Source of the DNA: Bacteroides sp. CAG:545
GTDB lineage: Bacteria; Bacteroidota; Bacteroidia; Bacteroidales; UBA932
Length of the DNA stretch: 64,000 nucleotides
Direction: 5' to 3'
Assembly (NCBI GenBank): GCA_000432515.1
Contig: HF996057.1
Location: 2,905-66,904 of the forward strand
The translations under genes were made by a program, and so were the position numbers. The notes under the pieces are model-generated. The model saw only the letters and a list, made by a program, of their open reading frames with translations, ran no database searches and was not told the origin of the DNA. Numbering within the stretch: the stretch's first letter is position 1; each line of letters starts with the position of its first letter. Shown here in pieces: positions 12,484 to 58,033 of the stretch.

Positions 12484-12641
12484 GGCAAAGGTATTGAATT
12501 ATTTATAAGACGGAAACGCTCGTTCAGATCTTCAAGAAATCTCATTTCATCGTCTTCAATGATGGAATCAGCTTCTATCAGGTCTGACAATATCCGTGCG
12601 AAAGCAATTCGTTGAAGTCTATCTTTCAGGAGCATTTTAAA

Positions 12642-13783: not shown

Positions 13784-13861
13784 AACTGTCTGTCAATCTG
13801 TGTTTTTGTAAAGTTAACAAATATATTATCTTTGCCGACGGAAAATATAATTTTCAATGTT

Positions 13862-15322
13862 ATGAATAAAGCAAGATTGACAGTACTTCTTTTCACCCTA
13901 ACGGCCTCAGTGGCTGTTTCAGCACAGAACTTCCAATCCAGGCGACCTGCAGAAGGGGAGCGGCTGTTCACATCAGAGAAAATCGAAAGCGTGATAGACA
14001 ATGTCACGGCGCAGCTTACGAATCCGAAACTCGCGTGGATGTTCCGCAACTGTTTCCCTAATACGCTTGACACTACCGTGCACTTCCGCGAAGACAGTGA
14101 CGGCAACCCGGACACCTTCGTATATACTGGAGATATTCATGCGATGTGGCTGCGGGATTCCGGAGCACAGGTCTGGCCGTACGTCCGTTATGCGTCTGAA
14201 GATGAGCATCTTCGGGCAATGATAGCTGGTGTCATAAACAGGCACTTCCTGTCCTTCAGCATTGACCCTTATGCAAATGCATTCAATGACGGACCGACAG
14301 GAGAAGGCTGGACGACAGACGATACTGGTTCGCCAAAAGATCCGAATGTCTATGAGAGAAAGTGGGAAATCGACTCTCAATGTTATCCTATACGCCTTGC
14401 TTACGAGTACTGGAAAGTCACTGGAGATACATCAGTATTCGGCGACAAGTGGATAAAAGGTATGAAACGTGTCCTCGAGGTGATGAGAGAACAGCAGCGC
14501 AAAGACGGTCCGGGCTCTTATATATTCCTGCGAGTAACTGACCGTCAGCTCGATACCAAATGCTACCGGGGACATGGCAATCCGGTGAAACCGTGCGGCC
14601 TGATCGCCTCAGCATTTCGTCCGTCAGACGATGCCACGACATTTGAATACCTCGTTCCGTCCAATTTCTTCGCTGTTTCTTCACTCAGAAAAGCAGCCGA
14701 GATCTTCGAAAAAGTGAACAAGGACAAGAAGATGGCCAAAGAATGCCGTGCGATCGCAGATGAAGTGGCTGCAGCACTCAAGAAGGAAGCAGTCGTATAT
14801 CATCCTGAGTTCGGAAACATCTATGCATTCGAAGTGGACGGCTACGGAAACCATTTCCTGATGGATGATGCCAATGCGCCAAGCCTCCTGTCGCTTGCAT
14901 ACCTCGATCCGTCCATGGCCAATGATCCTATATATCTCAATACCAGGCGTTTCGTATGGAGTGACAGCAATCCGTATTTCTATAAGGGCACGGCAGGCGA
15001 AGGCATCAGCGGACCGCATATCGGTTTTGAGAATATCTGGCCGATGAGTATAATGATGCGCGCTTTCACCTCCACCGATGACGATGAACTTTTGGATTGC
15101 ATTCTGATGCTGATGAATACAGATGCCGGCACCGGATTCATTCACGAATCATTCTATAAGGATGACCAATACGATTTCACTCGTGAGTGGTTTGCTTGGC
15201 AGAACACGCTCTTCGGAGAACTCATCCTCAAGCTCATTGACGATAACAAACTGCCACTTCTGAACAGCATTGCACTGGATGCCGACGGGAAGGCATATTT
15301 GAAAAATTCTACTTTACGCTGA
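13862..15322 (+). CDS. Glycoside hydrolase family 125 (exo-alpha-1,6-mannosidase), secreted
   Basis: GH125 signature YTGDIHAMWLRDSGAQVWPY. The ORF track starts at 13832 with an alternative codon. The first ATG at 13862 gives signal peptide MNKARLTVLLFTLTASVAVSAQ, and a -7 box TATCTTTG sits about 28 bp upstream. Confidence 0.8.
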   Translation: MNKARLTVLLFTLTASVAVSAQNFQSRRPAEGERLFTSEKIESVIDNVTAQLTNPKLAWMFRNCFPNTLDTTVHFREDSDGNPDTFVYTGDIHAMWLRDSGAQVWPYVRYASEDEHLRAMIAGVINRHFLSFSIDPYANAFNDGPTGEGWTTDDTGSPKDPNVYERKWEIDSQCYPIRLAYEYWKVTGDTSVFGDKWIKGMKRVLEVMREQQRKDGPGSYIFLRVTDRQLDTKCYRGHGNPVKPCGLIASAFRPSDDATTFEYLVPSNFFAVSSLRKAAEIFEKVNKDKKMAKECRAIADEVAAALKKEAVVYHPEFGNIYAFEVDGYGNHFLMDDANAPSLLSLAYLDPSMANDPIYLNTRRFVWSDSNPYFYKGTAGEGISGPHIGFENIWPMSIMMRAFTSTDDDELLDCILMLMNTDAGTGFIHESFYKDDQYDFTREWFAWQNTLFGELILKLIDDNKLPLLNSIALDADGKAYLKNSTLR

Positions 15323-34628: not shown

Positions 34629-34636
34629 CTTAACTT
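34629..34636 (+). promoter_or_regulatory. TAnnTTTG -7 box (TAACTTTG) about 57 bp upstream of valS
   Basis: Consensus match in the divergent intergenic region. Confidence 0.45.
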
Positions 34637-34692
34637 TGCATGATTTGAACATAATGTAATTATACGATTACTGTAAAAGAAAAATTATAAAC

Positions 34693-44209: not shown

Positions 44210-44287
44210 ACTGGATATGAATTTTACGACTGCAAAGATACTCAGAATCTTGCCTTCTTGTCAATCCATACTGAAAAATATGTCCTT

Positions 44288-44764
44288 TTACTTTATTTCA
44301 ATGAAAGTATTGTCATCGTAAAACACTACAATTTTCGATATTTTACGCTGATTATCAATTACTTGAATAGGGCCGGCAGGGGAGTCCTGACTCTTCGTGG
44401 CTTCAATATTCGTCTCTCGCCCTGCAGATGTACGGGCAATATTGGATTCTCGCGGCGTCTGGACAGGCATTTCCTGTACAACAGGCTGTGAAAACAAATC
44501 AGGAGCAGGATTCGCTTCCTGAGTCGGGGCAGCTTGTGGCTTCTCGACCATCATGGTCTTGTACATCTTGCCTTTGCCGTTCATTAGCCATTCAATGTTA
44601 AGGTTAGGGTAGTGCTCCATCATACTGTTCAGAAAATCCCAGCCGGGTTTGTTCCTTCCTGCCAATATATGGGACACACTTGCTCTTGCCACATTGATGG
44701 TGTCGGCAAACTGAGACTGGGAGATGTTCTCCGCAGCAAGAAATTGTTCTAATCTGCTGTTCAT
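44288..44764 (-). CDS. XRE-type helix-turn-helix protein with Pro/Gln-rich C-terminal half
   Basis: The internal ATG gives MNSRLEQFLAAENISQSQFADTINVARASVSHILAGRNKP (HTH_3-like). This small HTH family is common in Bacteroidales. Confidence 0.6.
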   Translation of the reverse strand: MNSRLEQFLAAENISQSQFADTINVARASVSHILAGRNKPGWDFLNSMMEHYPNLNIEWLMNGKGKMYKTMMVEKPQAAPTQEANPAPDLFSQPVVQEMPVQTPRESNIARTSAGRETNIEATKSQDSPAGPIQVIDNQRKISKIVVFYDDNTFIEIK

Positions 44765-45346
44765 ATTTCTAAACGTTGTGGTTACAAAAGTAATACGAAT
44801 AAATGTAAAAAACAAGTGTTTACATTTGGTTATCTTGTACACAGGTGTAAATTGTAAACAGATACACAATAAAGATAGACTAAAAACAACTTGATATAAT
44901 AAAACGTAAATACTTAGGTTTCAGCGGATAAACATTTAAATATAATTCCCACACCTCTATTTTACGCCACTCAGAGCAGGAATTTACACTAAATAAGTAA
45001 ATCAATAGTTAAAGTATCGTAATATAAAACTCAGAATATCAATAATATAGCATCCTTAAAAATACGTTATAAAAAACACTTATATTACATTGGTTAAAAT
45101 TTACAAATACAAACACATTATATTGTTAACTTATGTTAAATTTACAACAATTAACAGAAGCGACAATGATGTAACGGGGTTAAGGTTAATTTTGTAAACA
45201 GGGCGAATACACAAATGGTAAACTCCGTGACATTCTCAAATTCACAGAATTTTCAAAAGTTCTTCCGATATTCTTAATCTATGCGTAATTTTGCAGCCGC
45301 AAACGATGAAAGACATAATGTCTGCAATCGTACATAAGAAAATACA
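44765..45346. promoter_or_regulatory. 580-bp AT-rich (about 28% GC) divergent intergenic island with clustered TGTAAACA/AATTTACA motifs
   Basis: 8 copies of TTTACA/TGTAAA lie in about 450 bp, against an expectation of about 1. There are 3 copies of the 8-mer TGTAAACA/TGTTTACA and 4 copies of AATTTACA(A/C). Confidence 0.4.
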
Positions 45347-46575: not shown

Positions 46576-48099
46576 TTATAATGCTGAAATGTTCAGACTT
46601 AGTTCTTTGATGCCCATGCTGCACAGTGTGGGCATAAATTTTTTGTCTGAGGCCATTTCTCCGCACACGGCTGCTTCAATCCCGGCTTCTTCAGCAGCTT
46701 TAGAGACAATGCTGATGGCGGACAATACAGCCGGATCGTCATATCTATATAGGTAGGACACTGCGCTGTTTCCCCTGTCAGATGCCATAATGTACTGCGT
46801 CAAATCATTGGTGCCGATGCTGAAGAATCCCGCCCTGGATGCGAATTCTTTGGCCATAAGCACTGCTGCCGGCGTTTCTACCATCATACCGGCCTGAATG
46901 TCCGCATTGAACTTGATTTTCTCTGTTGCGAGTTCCTTTTTACAATCATCCAGTATCGAAATGGCCCCGTCCCATTCTTCTAACGTGCTGAGCATCGGGA
47001 ACATGACGCGGACATTACCGTAGGCGGATGCCCGTAGGATGGCTCTCAGCTGAGTTTTGAAAATCTCTGGTTTTTGCAGGCACAGCCTTATAGCACGCAG
47101 CCCGAGAAACGGATTGTCCTCATGGTCCATATGAAAGTACGGCAGGTGTTTGTCTCCGCCGATATCCAATGTCCTTATAGTCAATGTCTTGCCTGCACAG
47201 ATTTCAGCCGCCTCGCGGTATGCGTCGAACTGTGTCTGCTCATCCGGAAATCCGTCTTTGCTTTCCATGAACAGGAATTCACTGCGGAACAGGCCAATGC
47301 CCTCTGCACCTTTTCCAATGGCATTGCGTACATCTTCAATACTGCCTGCATTGGCATAGACCTTGACTCCTGGATATTCTCTATTTATCTGGCTTACAGT
47401 GCTTTCTGCCGTCAGTTTTGCCTCCATCCTCGTCTGGAATGCAGTCTCTGCAGCATCGTCAGGCGAGATGATTACATGACTGTTTTCAGCATCGATGATA
47501 GTGCGTTCTCCGTCAGAAATTTCTGTCGTGCAGCTGCATACGCCTGTCAGGACTGGAATCCCTTTGGTTTGGGCGATAATGCAGACGTGGCTTGTGGTGC
47601 TGCCTTTTTCCGACACCATTCCCGTTATACGGGATAAGTCCAGGGCTTCCAAATCTGAAGGGTAGAATTCTTCTGCTACTAAGATTATATGTTCATAATC
47701 AGGAAGTTGCAGCATCCTATCCGTTTCTCCTGCAAGTATCCGTTTAAGTCTTGCGACAACATCCTTGACATCATCTTTTCTCGCCTGCAGGTATTCGTCA
47801 TCCAGTTCGTCGAACATTGCGCAGATATCTCCGCAGGCCTTGTCTGTCGCCTCCATGACGGATAATCCTGCGCTTATGGCAGCGTCAATGGCTTCCCGCA
47901 GCATCGGATCTTCTGCAATTTCCGCATGTGCTTCGAAGATGCTGTCTTTTTCAGCGAGATGCCGAAGTTCTTCCGAAAGCCTTGTAAAGCTCTCGTCGAT
48001 ATCCATTGTTTCAGTGCTCTCGAGTTTGCTTCTATGCAGAATGAATGCATTCCCTGCACATAATCCTCTGGATTTTGCCGGTGATGTAAGGATTTTCAT
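46576..48099 (-). CDS. ptsI: Phosphoenolpyruvate-protein phosphotransferase (PTS enzyme I)
   Basis: 508 aa from ATG 48099. Aligns block-by-block to E. coli PtsI as I recall it: phospho-His region GSTTSHVCIIA, GAEGIGLFRSEFLFM, TLDIGGDK, FSIGTNDLTQY, active Cys AVCGEMA. Confidence 0.85.
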   Translation of the reverse strand: MKILTSPAKSRGLCAGNAFILHRSKLESTETMDIDESFTRLSEELRHLAEKDSIFEAHAEIAEDPMLREAIDAAISAGLSVMEATDKACGDICAMFDELDDEYLQARKDDVKDVVARLKRILAGETDRMLQLPDYEHIILVAEEFYPSDLEALDLSRITGMVSEKGSTTSHVCIIAQTKGIPVLTGVCSCTTEISDGERTIIDAENSHVIISPDDAAETAFQTRMEAKLTAESTVSQINREYPGVKVYANAGSIEDVRNAIGKGAEGIGLFRSEFLFMESKDGFPDEQTQFDAYREAAEICAGKTLTIRTLDIGGDKHLPYFHMDHEDNPFLGLRAIRLCLQKPEIFKTQLRAILRASAYGNVRVMFPMLSTLEEWDGAISILDDCKKELATEKIKFNADIQAGMMVETPAAVLMAKEFASRAGFFSIGTNDLTQYIMASDRGNSAVSYLYRYDDPAVLSAISIVSKAAEEAGIEAAVCGEMASDKKFMPTLCSMGIKELSLNISAL

Positions 48100-48100
48100 G

Positions 48101-48361
48101 TTACTTGAGTTCCTGTACGAATGTTGCGATGCGTTCTGCCACAGCAGTTTCATTGTCGCCCTCAGTAATGATCTCCAGTTCCGTTCCTTTTTTGAGGCCG
48201 AGAGTAAGAAGCGAAATCATACTCGTTCCCGAGGTGGATTTTCCATTGGCCTTCAATGTTACTTTTGTCGGAGCGGACTCCTTGATGAGTTTGATGAGTT
48301 CAGTTGCAGGACGTGCATGGATGCCGTTCTCCGCAGTTACAGTTACTTTTACGCTATTCAT
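48101..48361 (-). CDS. ptsH: Phosphocarrier protein HPr
   Basis: 86 aa with the His15 motif NGIHARPA and a Ser46-region KSTSGTSMISLLTLG. Confidence 0.85.
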   Translation of the reverse strand: MNSVKVTVTAENGIHARPATELIKLIKESAPTKVTLKANGKSTSGTSMISLLTLGLKKGTELEIITEGDNETAVAERIATFVQELK

Positions 48362-50147
48362 TGTTGTTCAATATGTTATAAATTATATTCGGATCTTCTG
48401 CAGACATCAGGGTCTTAAGTTTGTCCTCGTCTTCAAATGTCTCGCCTAGCGATGCCAAAATCTCTATATGTTCATCGCCTTTGCCTGCAATTCCTGCGAT
48501 CAGATATGCTTTCTCATCCCCGAAATCCACTCCTTCAGGATATTGAAGAATGACGATTCCTGAACGGATGATGTCCTTTTTGGCCTCATCCGTGCCGTGA
48601 GGAATGGCAATTCCCATGCCCATATAGGTCGTGGACTCATTTTCGCGTTTCAGCATTGCCTCTGCATATCCTTTCTGGACATATCCTTTCTGCTCGAGAA
48701 GATGCCCGGCGCGAAGTATTGCGTCATCTTTGCTTTCGGTCTTGAGCCCGGTAAGGATGTTGTCTTTGGCAAGCACTTCATGGTTGCAGCCTTTAAGCGA
48801 TTCCAGAAGCCTGTCCAGTGCCGGATCATCCATGAAGTTCTCAATTCCTATTACGACTGTCTTTTTTCCGCCTTCTGCACTGTTCTTTTCCACTTTTTCC
48901 AATGCCCTGTCTTTCAAATGGTTCTGACAGACCACAATGTCGGTATCCGCAGGAATACCTTCGATGGCGCAGTTGCTGATATCCGCGTCAATGTTTTCGT
49001 ACGCGGCTCTTTTACGGAACCTTGTAGCCCCGAGAGCGCTTGAGCCCATACCAGCGTCGCAGGCGAACTTTATGCGCTGTCTTGTGCCGGATTTGGATAT
49101 GTTTACATCTGCATTGACCTGATTGTCAGAGGCATTGGCCTTGCGTCCCTTTATGAGTGGGAGCGAGACGGCGAACGAGACTCCGGCGGCAATCAGAACT
49201 CCGGCCAATACGATGAGTGTCTGGCCTTTAGGCGCCATCGCCAGCACGGAAATTATGCTTCCGGGGGATGCCGGTGCTACCAGTCCGCCGCCGAATATGC
49301 TGAAAAACAGGAGGCTCGCGGAACTGCCGGCAATCATTGATATGAGCAGCAGAGGGTTTGCGAGTACATATGGGAAATAGATTTCGTGGATTCCTCCGAA
49401 GAAATGTATGATGGCCGCTCCTGGTGCCGATGTCTTGGAACTGCCTTTGCCGACAGCCCAGTACGCAAGCAGCATACCCAGTCCCGCACCGGGATTTGCT
49501 TCGATCAGGAACATCACCGATTGGCCGATTTCGTGTACCTGTTCGATTCCGATGGGTGAGAAAATCCCGTGATTTATGGCATTGTTCAGAAACAGGATCT
49601 TGGCCGGCTCTACCACTAACGATATCAGCGGCAGCATTTTATGTGCGATCAATGCTTCTGCGGCGCGGCTGACCAGTCCTGTGAGGGAACTTATCGCATT
49701 GCCCACTACTAGGAAGCCGGCGATGGCGAGAAGCATACCGATAATGCCGACCGAAAAGTTGTTCACCAGCATCTCGAAGCCGCTCCTGACGCGTCCTTTG
49801 GTCAGCTTGTCGAACTCCTTTATGGCCAAACCGCCAGCCGGCCCCATAATCATCGCGCCTATGAACATCGGAATGTCGCTGCCCGCGATTACGCCGATTG
49901 TCGCTATCGCCCCGGTTACTCCGCCTCTGTCGCCAGCGATGTTCTTGCCCGCCGTATAGGCGATAAGAATCGGAAGGAGATAGGTCAATGCAGGTGAAAC
50001 TAGCTTTGCCAGGTTGTCGTTGGGCAGCCATCCGTCAGGGATAAAGAGGGCTGTGATGAGTCCCCATGCTATGAAGGCTCCTATGTTGGGCATTACCATG
50101 GCGCTCATCGAGCGTCCGATACGCATGATAGTGTTCTTGAATTTCAT
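48354..50147 (-). CDS. mtlA: PTS mannitol-family transporter, fused EIICBA (MtlA-like)
   Basis: Block identity to E. coli MtlA as I recall it: MVMPNIGAFIAWG, SGFEMLVNNFS, EPAKILFLNNAINHGIFSP, FLIEANPG, IIHFxGGIHEIYFPYVL, VxPASPGSI..VLAM.PKG. EIIB Cys motif FACDAGMGSS. EIIA His motif GIAIPHGT. A -7 box TATATTTG lies upstream on the minus strand at about 50183-50190. Confidence 0.85.
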   Translation of the reverse strand: MKFKNTIMRIGRSMSAMVMPNIGAFIAWGLITALFIPDGWLPNDNLAKLVSPALTYLLPILIAYTAGKNIAGDRGGVTGAIATIGVIAGSDIPMFIGAMIMGPAGGLAIKEFDKLTKGRVRSGFEMLVNNFSVGIIGMLLAIAGFLVVGNAISSLTGLVSRAAEALIAHKMLPLISLVVEPAKILFLNNAINHGIFSPIGIEQVHEIGQSVMFLIEANPGAGLGMLLAYWAVGKGSSKTSAPGAAIIHFFGGIHEIYFPYVLANPLLLISMIAGSSASLLFFSIFGGGLVAPASPGSIISVLAMAPKGQTLIVLAGVLIAAGVSFAVSLPLIKGRKANASDNQVNADVNISKSGTRQRIKFACDAGMGSSALGATRFRKRAAYENIDADISNCAIEGIPADTDIVVCQNHLKDRALEKVEKNSAEGGKKTVVIGIENFMDDPALDRLLESLKGCNHEVLAKDNILTGLKTESKDDAILRAGHLLEQKGYVQKGYAEAMLKRENESTTYMGMGIAIPHGTDEAKKDIIRSGIVILQYPEGVDFGDEKAYLIAGIAGKGDEHIEILASLGETFEDEDKLKTLMSAEDPNIIYNILNNNE

Positions 50148-50363
50148 TGGTCCAGTGCTATGCAGTTGCATTATTTCTTACAAATATAAAACAATTCTGC
50201 CGACAAAATCACCTATTTGAAATCCATAATATTATTTTTGGAGCAGCCTTTGGAATAGAACTTTTTGCATATTCACGTGGTTTTTATTAGTTTTGTCCCT
50301 TGATACTGCATTTTGTGGAGATATCCGCGAATGTATGATATCCTAAACCAATTTTTTAAGATT

Positions 50364-52516: not shown

Positions 52517-53797
52517 TCAGAACAATTTGTCGATTGCTGCAATTATTTCTTCTGCAGGCAGTTCCGGGCTCAGAACCAGGTCCGGTTCCTTGAGTATGAA
52601 CCCTTTTCTCGTAGCGCTCAGCATACCGCCTCCTGTCACATTGAGCATAATGGTTTCATCCTTCTTCACGGTACCATTGTCGATTGCCTGTTTCAGACTG
52701 GCCACCGCACATGCTGAGGCTGGGAAAATGTCATATCCTTCAGCACTGTAATAACGTACAACCCATGAAACAATCTCATCGTTGCTGACTTTGAACATGT
52801 CGCCGCCTGATTTCTCCAGCACGTCGAACAGGCCACCTGCTATGCTGTATGGAGGTTTTCTGTTGGAGAGAACCTTTCCGAGAATGACTTCCGCCTTACT
52901 CCTGGACTCTTCAGGTGTCATCGATACGAGTTCGCGGCTGTGATTCTTCCAAGAGTCATACATGATAGTGAACGGAGCGTTCTGGCTGGCATAGACTCTC
53001 ATATTGTTCTTGCCGAATCTGCCGTCGGCAGCGAGCCTCTCTGCGTTTTCCCAAGCGGCAATAGCGCCCGTGCCGCTACCTACAGCCTGGAAATATGCAT
53101 CAGGAATACGGCCAATCACTTCCACGGCTGACAGTACTGTGGTTCCCATACCGTCTCTTCTGGCCACGTTCTTGGCACCGCCTTCAGCCATATATCTCGG
53201 ATCCTTGCAGAGTTTGTCTCCCAATGCGATGGCGTCATAATAGTCTGTGCCTGTCGGGGTTGCGACTATCTTTACGCAAGATGACAGCTTCTTTCTGAAC
53301 CAGAGGTCGCTTATATTGTCATAAGGAATGCAGATGACGATAGGAATGTTGTTGTCAGAGCATACTTTGGCAAATGCTCTTGCTGTGTTTCCGGCAGACT
53401 GGACAACCAGGATTCTCTTGTTGTTCTTCGGAAGTCTTGCGCATACGGAATAGGCTTCAGTCTCTTTGAACGAGCAGGTTTCCATTCTGGCGCCAAGGCG
53501 AGGGCAATAACCTGAGAATGTAATGTATAGATTCTCAAGGCCTAACATATTGGCCAAACCCTTGCTCTTATACGTTACAGGTGCGTGCGAATGTCTGAGA
53601 GTCTTGCGCACTGGAAGCCATTCTGCGTATCTGTAAAGCCCTTTGAGGTCATCTCTCGGGGTAAATTTGGTGTTATTGTAAACAGCTCTTACAAGTGAAG
53701 GAGCAGTTGCTTCCGGGTCGGCAAGAGACCAGCCCTCATCATCGAAAATTCGACCGTTTGATACATTGATCAACTTATAATCGATTGGCTTGAACAT
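52517..53797 (-). CDS. Fold-type II PLP enzyme, threonine-synthase-like (candidate cysteate synthase)
   Basis: 426 aa. The LYRYAEWLPV and CSFKE(T) PLP-lysine region resemble the threonine synthase family, but the sequence deviates from canonical ThrC (SFKE rather than SFKDRG). Confidence 0.55.
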   Translation of the reverse strand: MFKPIDYKLINVSNGRIFDDEGWSLADPEATAPSLVRAVYNNTKFTPRDDLKGLYRYAEWLPVRKTLRHSHAPVTYKSKGLANMLGLENLYITFSGYCPRLGARMETCSFKETEAYSVCARLPKNNKRILVVQSAGNTARAFAKVCSDNNIPIVICIPYDNISDLWFRKKLSSCVKIVATPTGTDYYDAIALGDKLCKDPRYMAEGGAKNVARRDGMGTTVLSAVEVIGRIPDAYFQAVGSGTGAIAAWENAERLAADGRFGKNNMRVYASQNAPFTIMYDSWKNHSRELVSMTPEESRSKAEVILGKVLSNRKPPYSIAGGLFDVLEKSGGDMFKVSNDEIVSWVVRYYSAEGYDIFPASACAVASLKQAIDNGTVKKDETIMLNVTGGGMLSATRKGFILKEPDLVLSPELPAEEIIAAIDKLF

Positions 53798-57887: not shown

Positions 57888-58033
57888 ACCTAACTTAACA
57901 TAATATAAATTGTATAACACACGGCAAACCCGTATGGGAATACAAAGATAATATTTTATGGCTACATATAGCCGTAAAAAATCTCAGTTTCGTTCCAGTC
58001 GCGCACGGAACATCTCCAAAATACATTGTCATG

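Follow-up and report, generated by a model that had tools for sequence, protein, structure and literature searches.

In textbooks, the Bacteroidota exemplify a major gut phylum whose sugars are imported without a phosphotransferase system (PTS), and in metagenomics PTS gene counts are often taken as a signal of Firmicutes or Proteobacteria. Among described systems, the mannitol PTS of E. coli and Klebsiella, encoded by the mtlADR operon, is a close counterpart of the locus reported here, which consists of three contiguous, tightly packed open reading frames (ORFs), mtlA, ptsH and ptsI, on the minus strand at positions 46576–50171 of a 64,000-nt stretch of DNA from Bacteroides sp. CAG:545 (assembly GCA_000432515.1, contig HF996057.1, positions 2,905–66,904; hereafter the window). 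We read mtlA-ptsH-ptsI, with a probability of about 0.75, as a self-sufficient phosphoenolpyruvate (PEP):carbohydrate phosphotransferase operon that was acquired by old horizontal transfer and has since been domesticated. Its MtlA shares with the E. coli and Klebsiella proteins the single-chain IIC-IIB-IIA architecture and 47–48% full-length identity, the phospho-Cys, phospho-His and GIHE motifs are identical, and the active sites of Enzyme I (EI) and HPr align residue for residue. The two systems differ in that the window has ptsH and ptsI inside the operon and mtlD and mtlR outside it, in the length of EI (507 aa versus 575 aa), in the Bacteroidota-type promoter of the window operon and in its Bacteroidales host.

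Mannitol use of another kind has been described within the phylum. In a study of fish-gut metagenome-assembled genomes (MAGs), a route through mannitol 2-dehydrogenase and fructokinase was inferred to be widespread in Bacteroidia, with Zobellia cited as the characterised example, and mannitol PTS genes were found in Clostridia, one Bacilli and one Gammaproteobacteria MAG, with none in Bacteroidia (PMC11333855). The Zobellia galactanivorans-type pathway resembles the present operon in phylum and presumed substrate and differs in that free mannitol is oxidised after non-PTS uptake. According to an evolutionary survey, Bacteroidetes lack the PTS (PMC2405797), a 2026 review has no characterised glycoside PTS from Bacteroidota among its entries (PMC13543919), and one further paper makes only generic mention of mannitol genes in Bacteroidota MAGs (PMC11077953). 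No paper describing a mannitol PTS in Bacteroidales was found.

The mtlA gene (48354–50171, minus strand; ORF of 605 aa) encodes a mannitol-type Enzyme II in IIC-IIB-IIA order according to Pfam and NCBIfam, with PTS_EIIC at residues 24–282, PTS_IIB at 367–457 and PTS_EIIA_2 at 466–603. The protein scores 676.3 bits against NF011663 (mannitol IICBA; curated cut-off 589) and its IIC domain 483.5 bits against TIGR00851 (mtlA; cut-off 468.4), the latter by a narrow margin. Cys371 of IIB (codon 49061–49059) lies in ACDAGMGSS and was aligned to E. coli IIB (1vkr), and His525 of IIA (codon 48599–48597) lies in GIAIPHGT and was aligned to E. coli IIA (1a3a). In IIC, the GIHE motif occupies residues 260–263 (codons 49394–49383), within GGIHEIYFPY. 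From mutagenesis in E. coli, this motif has a role in mannitol binding and phosphorylation, and we take the E. coli counterparts of the two phosphorylation sites to be Cys384 of IIB and His554 of IIA. Domains, both cut-offs, phosphorylated residues and GIHE all agree in placing the protein in the mannitol class of Enzyme II (TC 4.A.2). Database copies of MtlA are 597 and 590 aa long, and the true start is probably M9 at 50147, giving a 597-aa product, because the predicted promoter box described below lies only 10–17 nt upstream of the first ATG.

HPr is encoded by ptsH (48101–48361, minus strand; 86 aa), identified by Pfam PTS-HPr and by TIGR01003 (70.7 bits, cut-off 47.9). His15 (codon 48319–48317), Arg17 and Ser46 (codon 48226–48224) are all present in the alignment to E. 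coli HPr, within the active-site motif NGIHARPA (His15) and the regulatory motif GTSMISL (Ser46). The ptsH ATG overlaps the mtlA stop codon by 8 nt (ATGAATAG) and the ptsI ATG is found 1 nt past the ptsH stop, junctions from which translational coupling of mtlA, ptsH and ptsI would be expected.

The third gene, ptsI (46576–48099, minus strand), encodes a compact EI of 507 aa with PEP-utilisers_N, PEP-utilizers and PEP-utilizers_C domains (Pfam). Its start is most likely M19 (48099) of a 525-aa long ORF, because this ATG is the one lying 1 nt past the ptsH stop and 507 aa is the length of nearly all copies in databases. The protein scores 461 bits against TIGR01417 (cut-off 341.7), with the match stopping at model position 528 of 565. 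His171 (codon 47589–47587) and Cys479 (codon 46665–46663) align with His189 and Cys502 of E. coli EI, respectively, and the PEP- and Mg-binding Arg, Glu, Asn and Asp residues are retained in the alignment to the solved E. coli EI. None of the three genes contains a frameshift or an internal stop. The first-pass annotation, made from the sequence by eye, had proposed a complete, intact operon with all catalytic residues at these minus-strand positions; Pfam, NCBIfam and the alignments to solved E. coli proteins agree with this, the MtlA, EI and HPr genes show no inactivating lesions, and the likely starts of ptsI and mtlA were revised.

EI is unusual at its C terminus. The 507-aa protein aligns with residues 67–526 of the 575-aa E. 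coli EI and has ∼45 fewer C-terminal residues, ending right after ELSLNISAL, 0 residues past barrel strand β8, so that α8 and the C-terminal helix, which are typical of the family and not defining for it, are absent. Comparison with the 71 nearest cluster representatives at 50% identity revealed a single one that ends within 5 residues of this point, 25 that end 6–20 residues later, after one short helix, and 38 with more than 35 additional residues. The 507-aa form is nonetheless the standard one among the ∼1,960 members of its own cluster, and the EI orthologue of the closest locus in our comparison (L001), which is just 51% identical, stops at the same position. An AlphaFold2 model (mean predicted local confidence, pLDDT, 94.4) has the full set of eight strands in its barrel, and the chain stops after β8 (E499–503) with no α8; the PEP-binding domain of the model superposes on that of T. 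tengcongensis at 1.0 Å over 262 alignment columns, and the whole model matches S. aureus EI (2wqd) with a TM-score of 0.82, normalised to the query (both Foldseek).

Selection on the operon could be followed in three other strains of the same species (L086–L088), independent assemblies with the same flanks that differ at 2–4% of sites. Against these strains, the ratio of nonsynonymous to synonymous substitution rates (dN/dS) is 0.10–0.12 for mtlA, 0.12–0.16 for ptsI and 0 for ptsH, the HPr protein being 100% identical in all of them; the operon genes are under purifying selection. The protein clusters of the operon products each hold ∼1,700–2,000 near-identical members in metagenome collections, which points to an abundant gut organism in which the operon is stably kept. 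The dN/dS values, the confident model of a complete barrel and the conserved end point together argue for the short EI being a conserved feature of the lineage, and by prediction a natural minimal functional form of the enzyme, not a lesion. It is conceivable that the operon is a decaying, non-functional remnant, with an inactive truncated EI and a pathway broken for lack of mtlD, given that EI stops well before E. coli EI and is the shortest among its relatives, that no mtlD was found nearby in the 64 kb, and that ptsI is found as two ORFs in an A. communis-type metagenome contig (L085). We consider this very unlikely in view of the dN/dS of both ptsI and mtlA, the prevalence of the 507-aa form and the shared end point in an orthologue of such low identity, and the retention of every catalytic and PEP/Mg-binding residue in a confidently modelled, complete eight-stranded barrel. 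In L085 (6622–8414) the two ptsI ORFs are of 299 and 298 aa, where the syntenic A. communis-type locus L084 has a single 562-aa gene, and the split is either a strain frameshift or an assembly error.

Upstream of mtlA, reading of the sequence identified a candidate −7 promoter box, TATATTTG (50181–50188, minus strand), of the Bacteroidota type TAnnTTTG, and a TTTG at 50207–50204 is a possible −33 element, with a spacing below consensus. A TAnnTTTG box also precedes mtlA in five of the other loci (L001, L006, L008, L011 and L084). Within the window as a whole there are 42 TAnnTTTG sites versus 31.5 expected, many of them directly upstream of gene starts (for example 12486–12493, 34631–34638, 44233–44240, 45286–45293 and 57943–57950), and this enrichment independently marks the window as Bacteroidota. 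A scan of the window for sigma-70 promoters and terminators gave results at chance level only.

The host of the operon is an uncultured human-gut member of the Bacteroidales and the chromosomal context is genuine. The EI sequence agrees exactly with that of CCZ43913.1, which is encoded on a Bacteroides sp. CAG:545 contig of 164 kb. On one flank, queA is convergent with ptsI, with 11 nt between the two stop codons; on the other are a 408-aa ORF, MscS, cysteate synthase, a Ca/Na antiporter and RlmD, all ordinary chromosomal genes. The 408-aa ORF, beside mtlA, is acyltransferase-like by reading of its sequence and matches no NCBIfam family; it recurs together with MscS and queA in the independent assemblies L086–L088, which come from different samples. 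The GC content of the operon is 0.497 compared with 0.480 for the window, GC content at third codon positions is unremarkable, and the tetranucleotide correlation of the operon with the rest of the window falls at the 18th percentile of window segments and is thus not atypical. Both the Bacteroidales context and the native composition that had been proposed from the sequence by eye are upheld by these results. The EI match, the ordinary flanks, the host promoter boxes and the unremarkable composition make contamination or chimerism very unlikely and imply that any transfer is old.

A contaminant from Firmicutes, or a chimeric assembly, would account for the facts that the closest GTDB match among those listed (L001, CAVJKV010000012.1) is titled 'Oscillibacter sp.' and that MtlA groups with Clostridia sequences. 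This explanation is barely credible, however, since the same genes flank the operon on both sides in independent assemblies from different samples, Bacteroidota −7 boxes are found throughout the window with one upstream of mtlA, the composition of the operon agrees with that of its surroundings, and the exact EI match lies on a long contig assigned to the same organism; moreover, the L001 label itself is open to doubt. The L001 flanks hold a hybrid two-component system, a GH3 enzyme and an esterase, along with SusC/D-like ORFs judged from ORF size and C-terminal sequence only, and its tetranucleotide profile correlates with that of the window at r = 0.93. On these grounds L001 is probably a Bacteroidales genome that has been mislabelled or mis-binned.

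The GTDB species representatives were scanned for MtlA and the best 80 loci kept, so that the counts that follow are lower bounds. Identity to the window protein is 68% in L001, 54–58% in four Bacteroidales MAGs from rumen and horse, 50–53% in four Alistipes MAGs, ∼50% in many gut Clostridia and ∼47% in Vibrio and Enterobacterales. The gene order mtlA-ptsH-ptsI is kept in L001, L002, L004, L006, L008, L011, L012 and L084, and the operon is not unique, being present in eight or more further species-level genomes of Bacteroidales or Alistipes. The most complete comparison is offered by L084, where the order is mtlA(615)-ptsH(86)-ptsI(562)-abhydrolase-mtlD(385)-GDPD (product lengths in aa; GDPD, glycerophosphodiester phosphodiesterase) and the MtlD is identical to WP_195452623.1 of Alistipes communis, which means that a complete mannitol PTS together with MtlD is already annotated in a named Bacteroidales species. 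L084 agrees with the window in phylum, order, gene order and spacing of mtlA-ptsH-ptsI, and differs in its MtlA (54% identical to that of the window), its full-length EI (562 aa), the linkage of mtlD to the operon and a GC content of 0.60 versus 0.48. The system had been put forward as unusual for its group; the eight or more relatives and the A. communis-type contig with mtlD go partly against this and make such operons in part common in the parent group. The operon is rare for the phylum yet already annotated in databases.

A bootstrapped neighbour-joining tree of 82 MtlA sequences, an analysis that the first-pass annotation had suggested, places 11 Bacteroidales and 24 gut Clostridia-type proteins in one clade with 100% bootstrap support, apart from Bacilli, Paenibacillus and Proteobacteria. 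The Bacteroidales lineages in this clade are Alistipes, relatives of Cryptobacteroides, and the rumen and horse MAGs, and their monophyly is supported at 53% only; A. communis-type MtlA shares 58–59% identity with Clostridia proteins, compared with 54% for the window protein or another Alistipes sequence. The gut Clostridia loci L009 (Clostridia UC5.1-1D10), L010 (Ruminococcus) and L026 (Eubacteriales) resemble the window in their MtlA (50–53% identical, same clade), in encoding HPr and EI beside the mtl genes and, in L010 and L026, in a short EI of 534 aa. They differ in having mtlD beside mtlA, in gene order and in a large divergent or upstream ORF that is probably a regulator (putative). 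A clade that spans gut Clostridia and several Bacteroidales lineages points to entry into Bacteroidales by old horizontal transfer, although the direction is itself inferred. Read most simply, a self-sufficient cassette passed between Clostridia and Bacteroidales in one or several old transfers, the number being left at one or several because Bacteroidales monophyly is weak, with vertical descent, rearrangement and promoter refitting thereafter. Thus, of the two origins first offered, ancient transfer or lineage-specific retention, an old and possibly repeated exchange with gut Clostridia is favoured, and a singular retention is not.

Unlike in a canonical mtl operon, neither mtlD nor an MtlR-type regulator is adjacent to mtlA-ptsH-ptsI. 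The missing mtlD had been noticed at the outset, and tblastn with Klebsiella and Bacillus MtlD found no mtlD in the 64-kb window; in L003 the same search placed mtlD directly upstream of mtlA, and in L011 it placed the gene ∼1 kb past ptsI, so that, with L084, mtlD is operon-linked in three Bacteroidales relatives. By analogy with these relatives, and by genomic association in them and not in the window, MtlA would move mannitol and yield mannitol-1-phosphate. Used as a query, the L003 MtlD retrieved a varied family of MtlD proteins from Bacteroidales, and stand-alone mtlD-GDPD loci exist in contigs of abundant gut Bacteroidales, including L089 and L092, with tetranucleotide profiles that correlate with that of the window at r = 0.87–0.91, a measure that does not resolve species (L001, a different species, reaches 0.93). 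As such loci exist in compositionally similar contigs, an unlinked mtlD elsewhere in this genome is plausible and, in our judgement, reasonably likely. One stand-alone mtlD locus, L081, was rejected as the locus of this organism on account of its GC content of 0.535 and proteins named Candidatus Cryptobacteroides.

The pairing of mtlD with a following GDPD gene is recurrent, often with a 4-nt overlap (L084 9696–11909, L089 2001–4177, L092 10001–13507, L094 737–2913). In L092 the pair is followed by a histidine phosphatase and a metallophosphatase, with SusC/D genes also in the locus. Among L092-type loci (L095–L104), many independent contigs stop at one point, ∼160 nt past the His_Phos_2 gene, which suggests a repeat or a strain-variable junction. 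In L001 an Fe-ADH_2 (PF13685) dehydrogenase is encoded at 13843–15192 (plus strand), immediately after ptsI, in the place that mtlD takes in other relatives. It was rejected as a shared substitute for MtlD, there being no homologue in the window or in other loci.

A transporter of the mannitol family could serve a different polyol or sugar here, with a product handled by an enzyme other than MtlD, in which case mtlD would not be linked. The lack of mtlD over 64 kb, the dehydrogenase that follows ptsI in L001 and is without homologues in the window and the other loci, and the slim margin over the TIGR00851 cut-off all fit such a system. Set against them are the passage of MtlA through both curated mannitol-specific models, the conserved GIHE motif and 47–50% identity to the Klebsiella and Bacillus MtlA proteins that are encoded beside mtlD, the three Bacteroidales relatives with mtlD in or beside the operon, and the stand-alone mtlD genes of genomes with a near-identical tetranucleotide signature; we regard a different substrate as unlikely. 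The early doubt about the substrate is weakened by the linkage of mtlD in relatives.

The operon is therefore best read as a real mannitol-type PTS that is probably functional, a judgement drawn from sequence. Based on family membership, we infer the following route. The compact EI would autophosphorylate at His171 from PEP and pass the phosphoryl group to His15 of HPr, from which it would reach His525 of the MtlA IIA domain and then Cys371 of IIB. Import across the inner membrane would be the task of IIC, with mannitol or a closely similar hexitol as substrate and mannitol-1-phosphate as the released product, which an unlinked MtlD would be expected to convert into fructose-6-phosphate. Expression of the three genes, presumably coupled in translation, would be driven by the host-type TAnnTTTG promoter, with no MtlR-type regulator nearby. 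The cassette itself would have entered Bacteroidales by old horizontal transfer, perhaps repeatedly, before its domestication.

Several observations weigh against this interpretation. Neither a regulator nor a component for uptake across the outer membrane was identified: there is no MtlR-type regulator among the flanking genes (Klebsiella MtlR was included in the tblastn query, its matches not being tabulated), and the nearest helix-turn-helix-like ORF (44288–44869) matches no NCBIfam family. The literature contains no experimental evidence for any Bacteroidota PTS (PMC2405797, PMC13543919). The tail of EI is shorter than that of all but 1 of the 71 nearest cluster representatives, and its activity is a prediction. 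The window is without mtlD, no accession or sample ties any stand-alone mtlD locus to CAG:545, a look-up with the exact 525-aa EI gave no match, and the substrate or the downstream step may differ in the sub-lineage of L001 and the window, given that this closest relative has Fe-ADH_2 and not mtlD after ptsI.

The machinery is canonical and the host unusual, and nothing is changed in the understanding of how a PTS works. What changes is where one can be found: because an abundant gut Bacteroidales, several Alistipes and related genomes hold a complete mannitol-type PTS under selection, both the view of Bacteroidota as a phylum without PTS import and the reading of PTS gene counts as a marker of other phyla have exceptions. 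As a dietary polyol, mannitol is poorly absorbed, and the operon therefore offers a plausible private niche. The cassette would represent a clear case of gene exchange between Clostridia and Bacteroidales with later refitting by host promoters, and the naturally truncated EI lends itself to testing what EI needs its C-terminal helices for. A more speculative idea, which we hold to be rather improbable, is that the PTS has been pared down to a minimal dedicated chain, with a single Enzyme II, an EI without α8 and the C-terminal helix, and no coupling to mtlD. If the genome truly had no MtlD, the PTS would feed a new route for mannitol-1-phosphate or serve mainly in polyol sensing or regulation; candidates for a new route would be the L001 Fe-ADH_2 enzyme or the conserved mtlD-GDPD-phosphatase module of relatives. 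With either outcome, Bacteroidota would for the first time have a PTS to which a physiological role is assigned.

No RNA element came up when the window was scanned with Rfam and for tRNA genes. A hairpin that resembles a terminator and has a T-run (46610–46635, plus strand), apparently serving the convergent queA, is located inside the last 20 codons of ptsI. On the other side of the operon, 2.3 kb from mtlA, the cysteate synthase gene (52517–53797, minus strand) scores 431.6 bits against TIGR03844 (cut-off 324.9). This enzyme presumably supplies the precursor of sulfonolipids in Alistipes/Odoribacter-type Bacteroidales, and its presence would fit a Rikenellaceae-like host.

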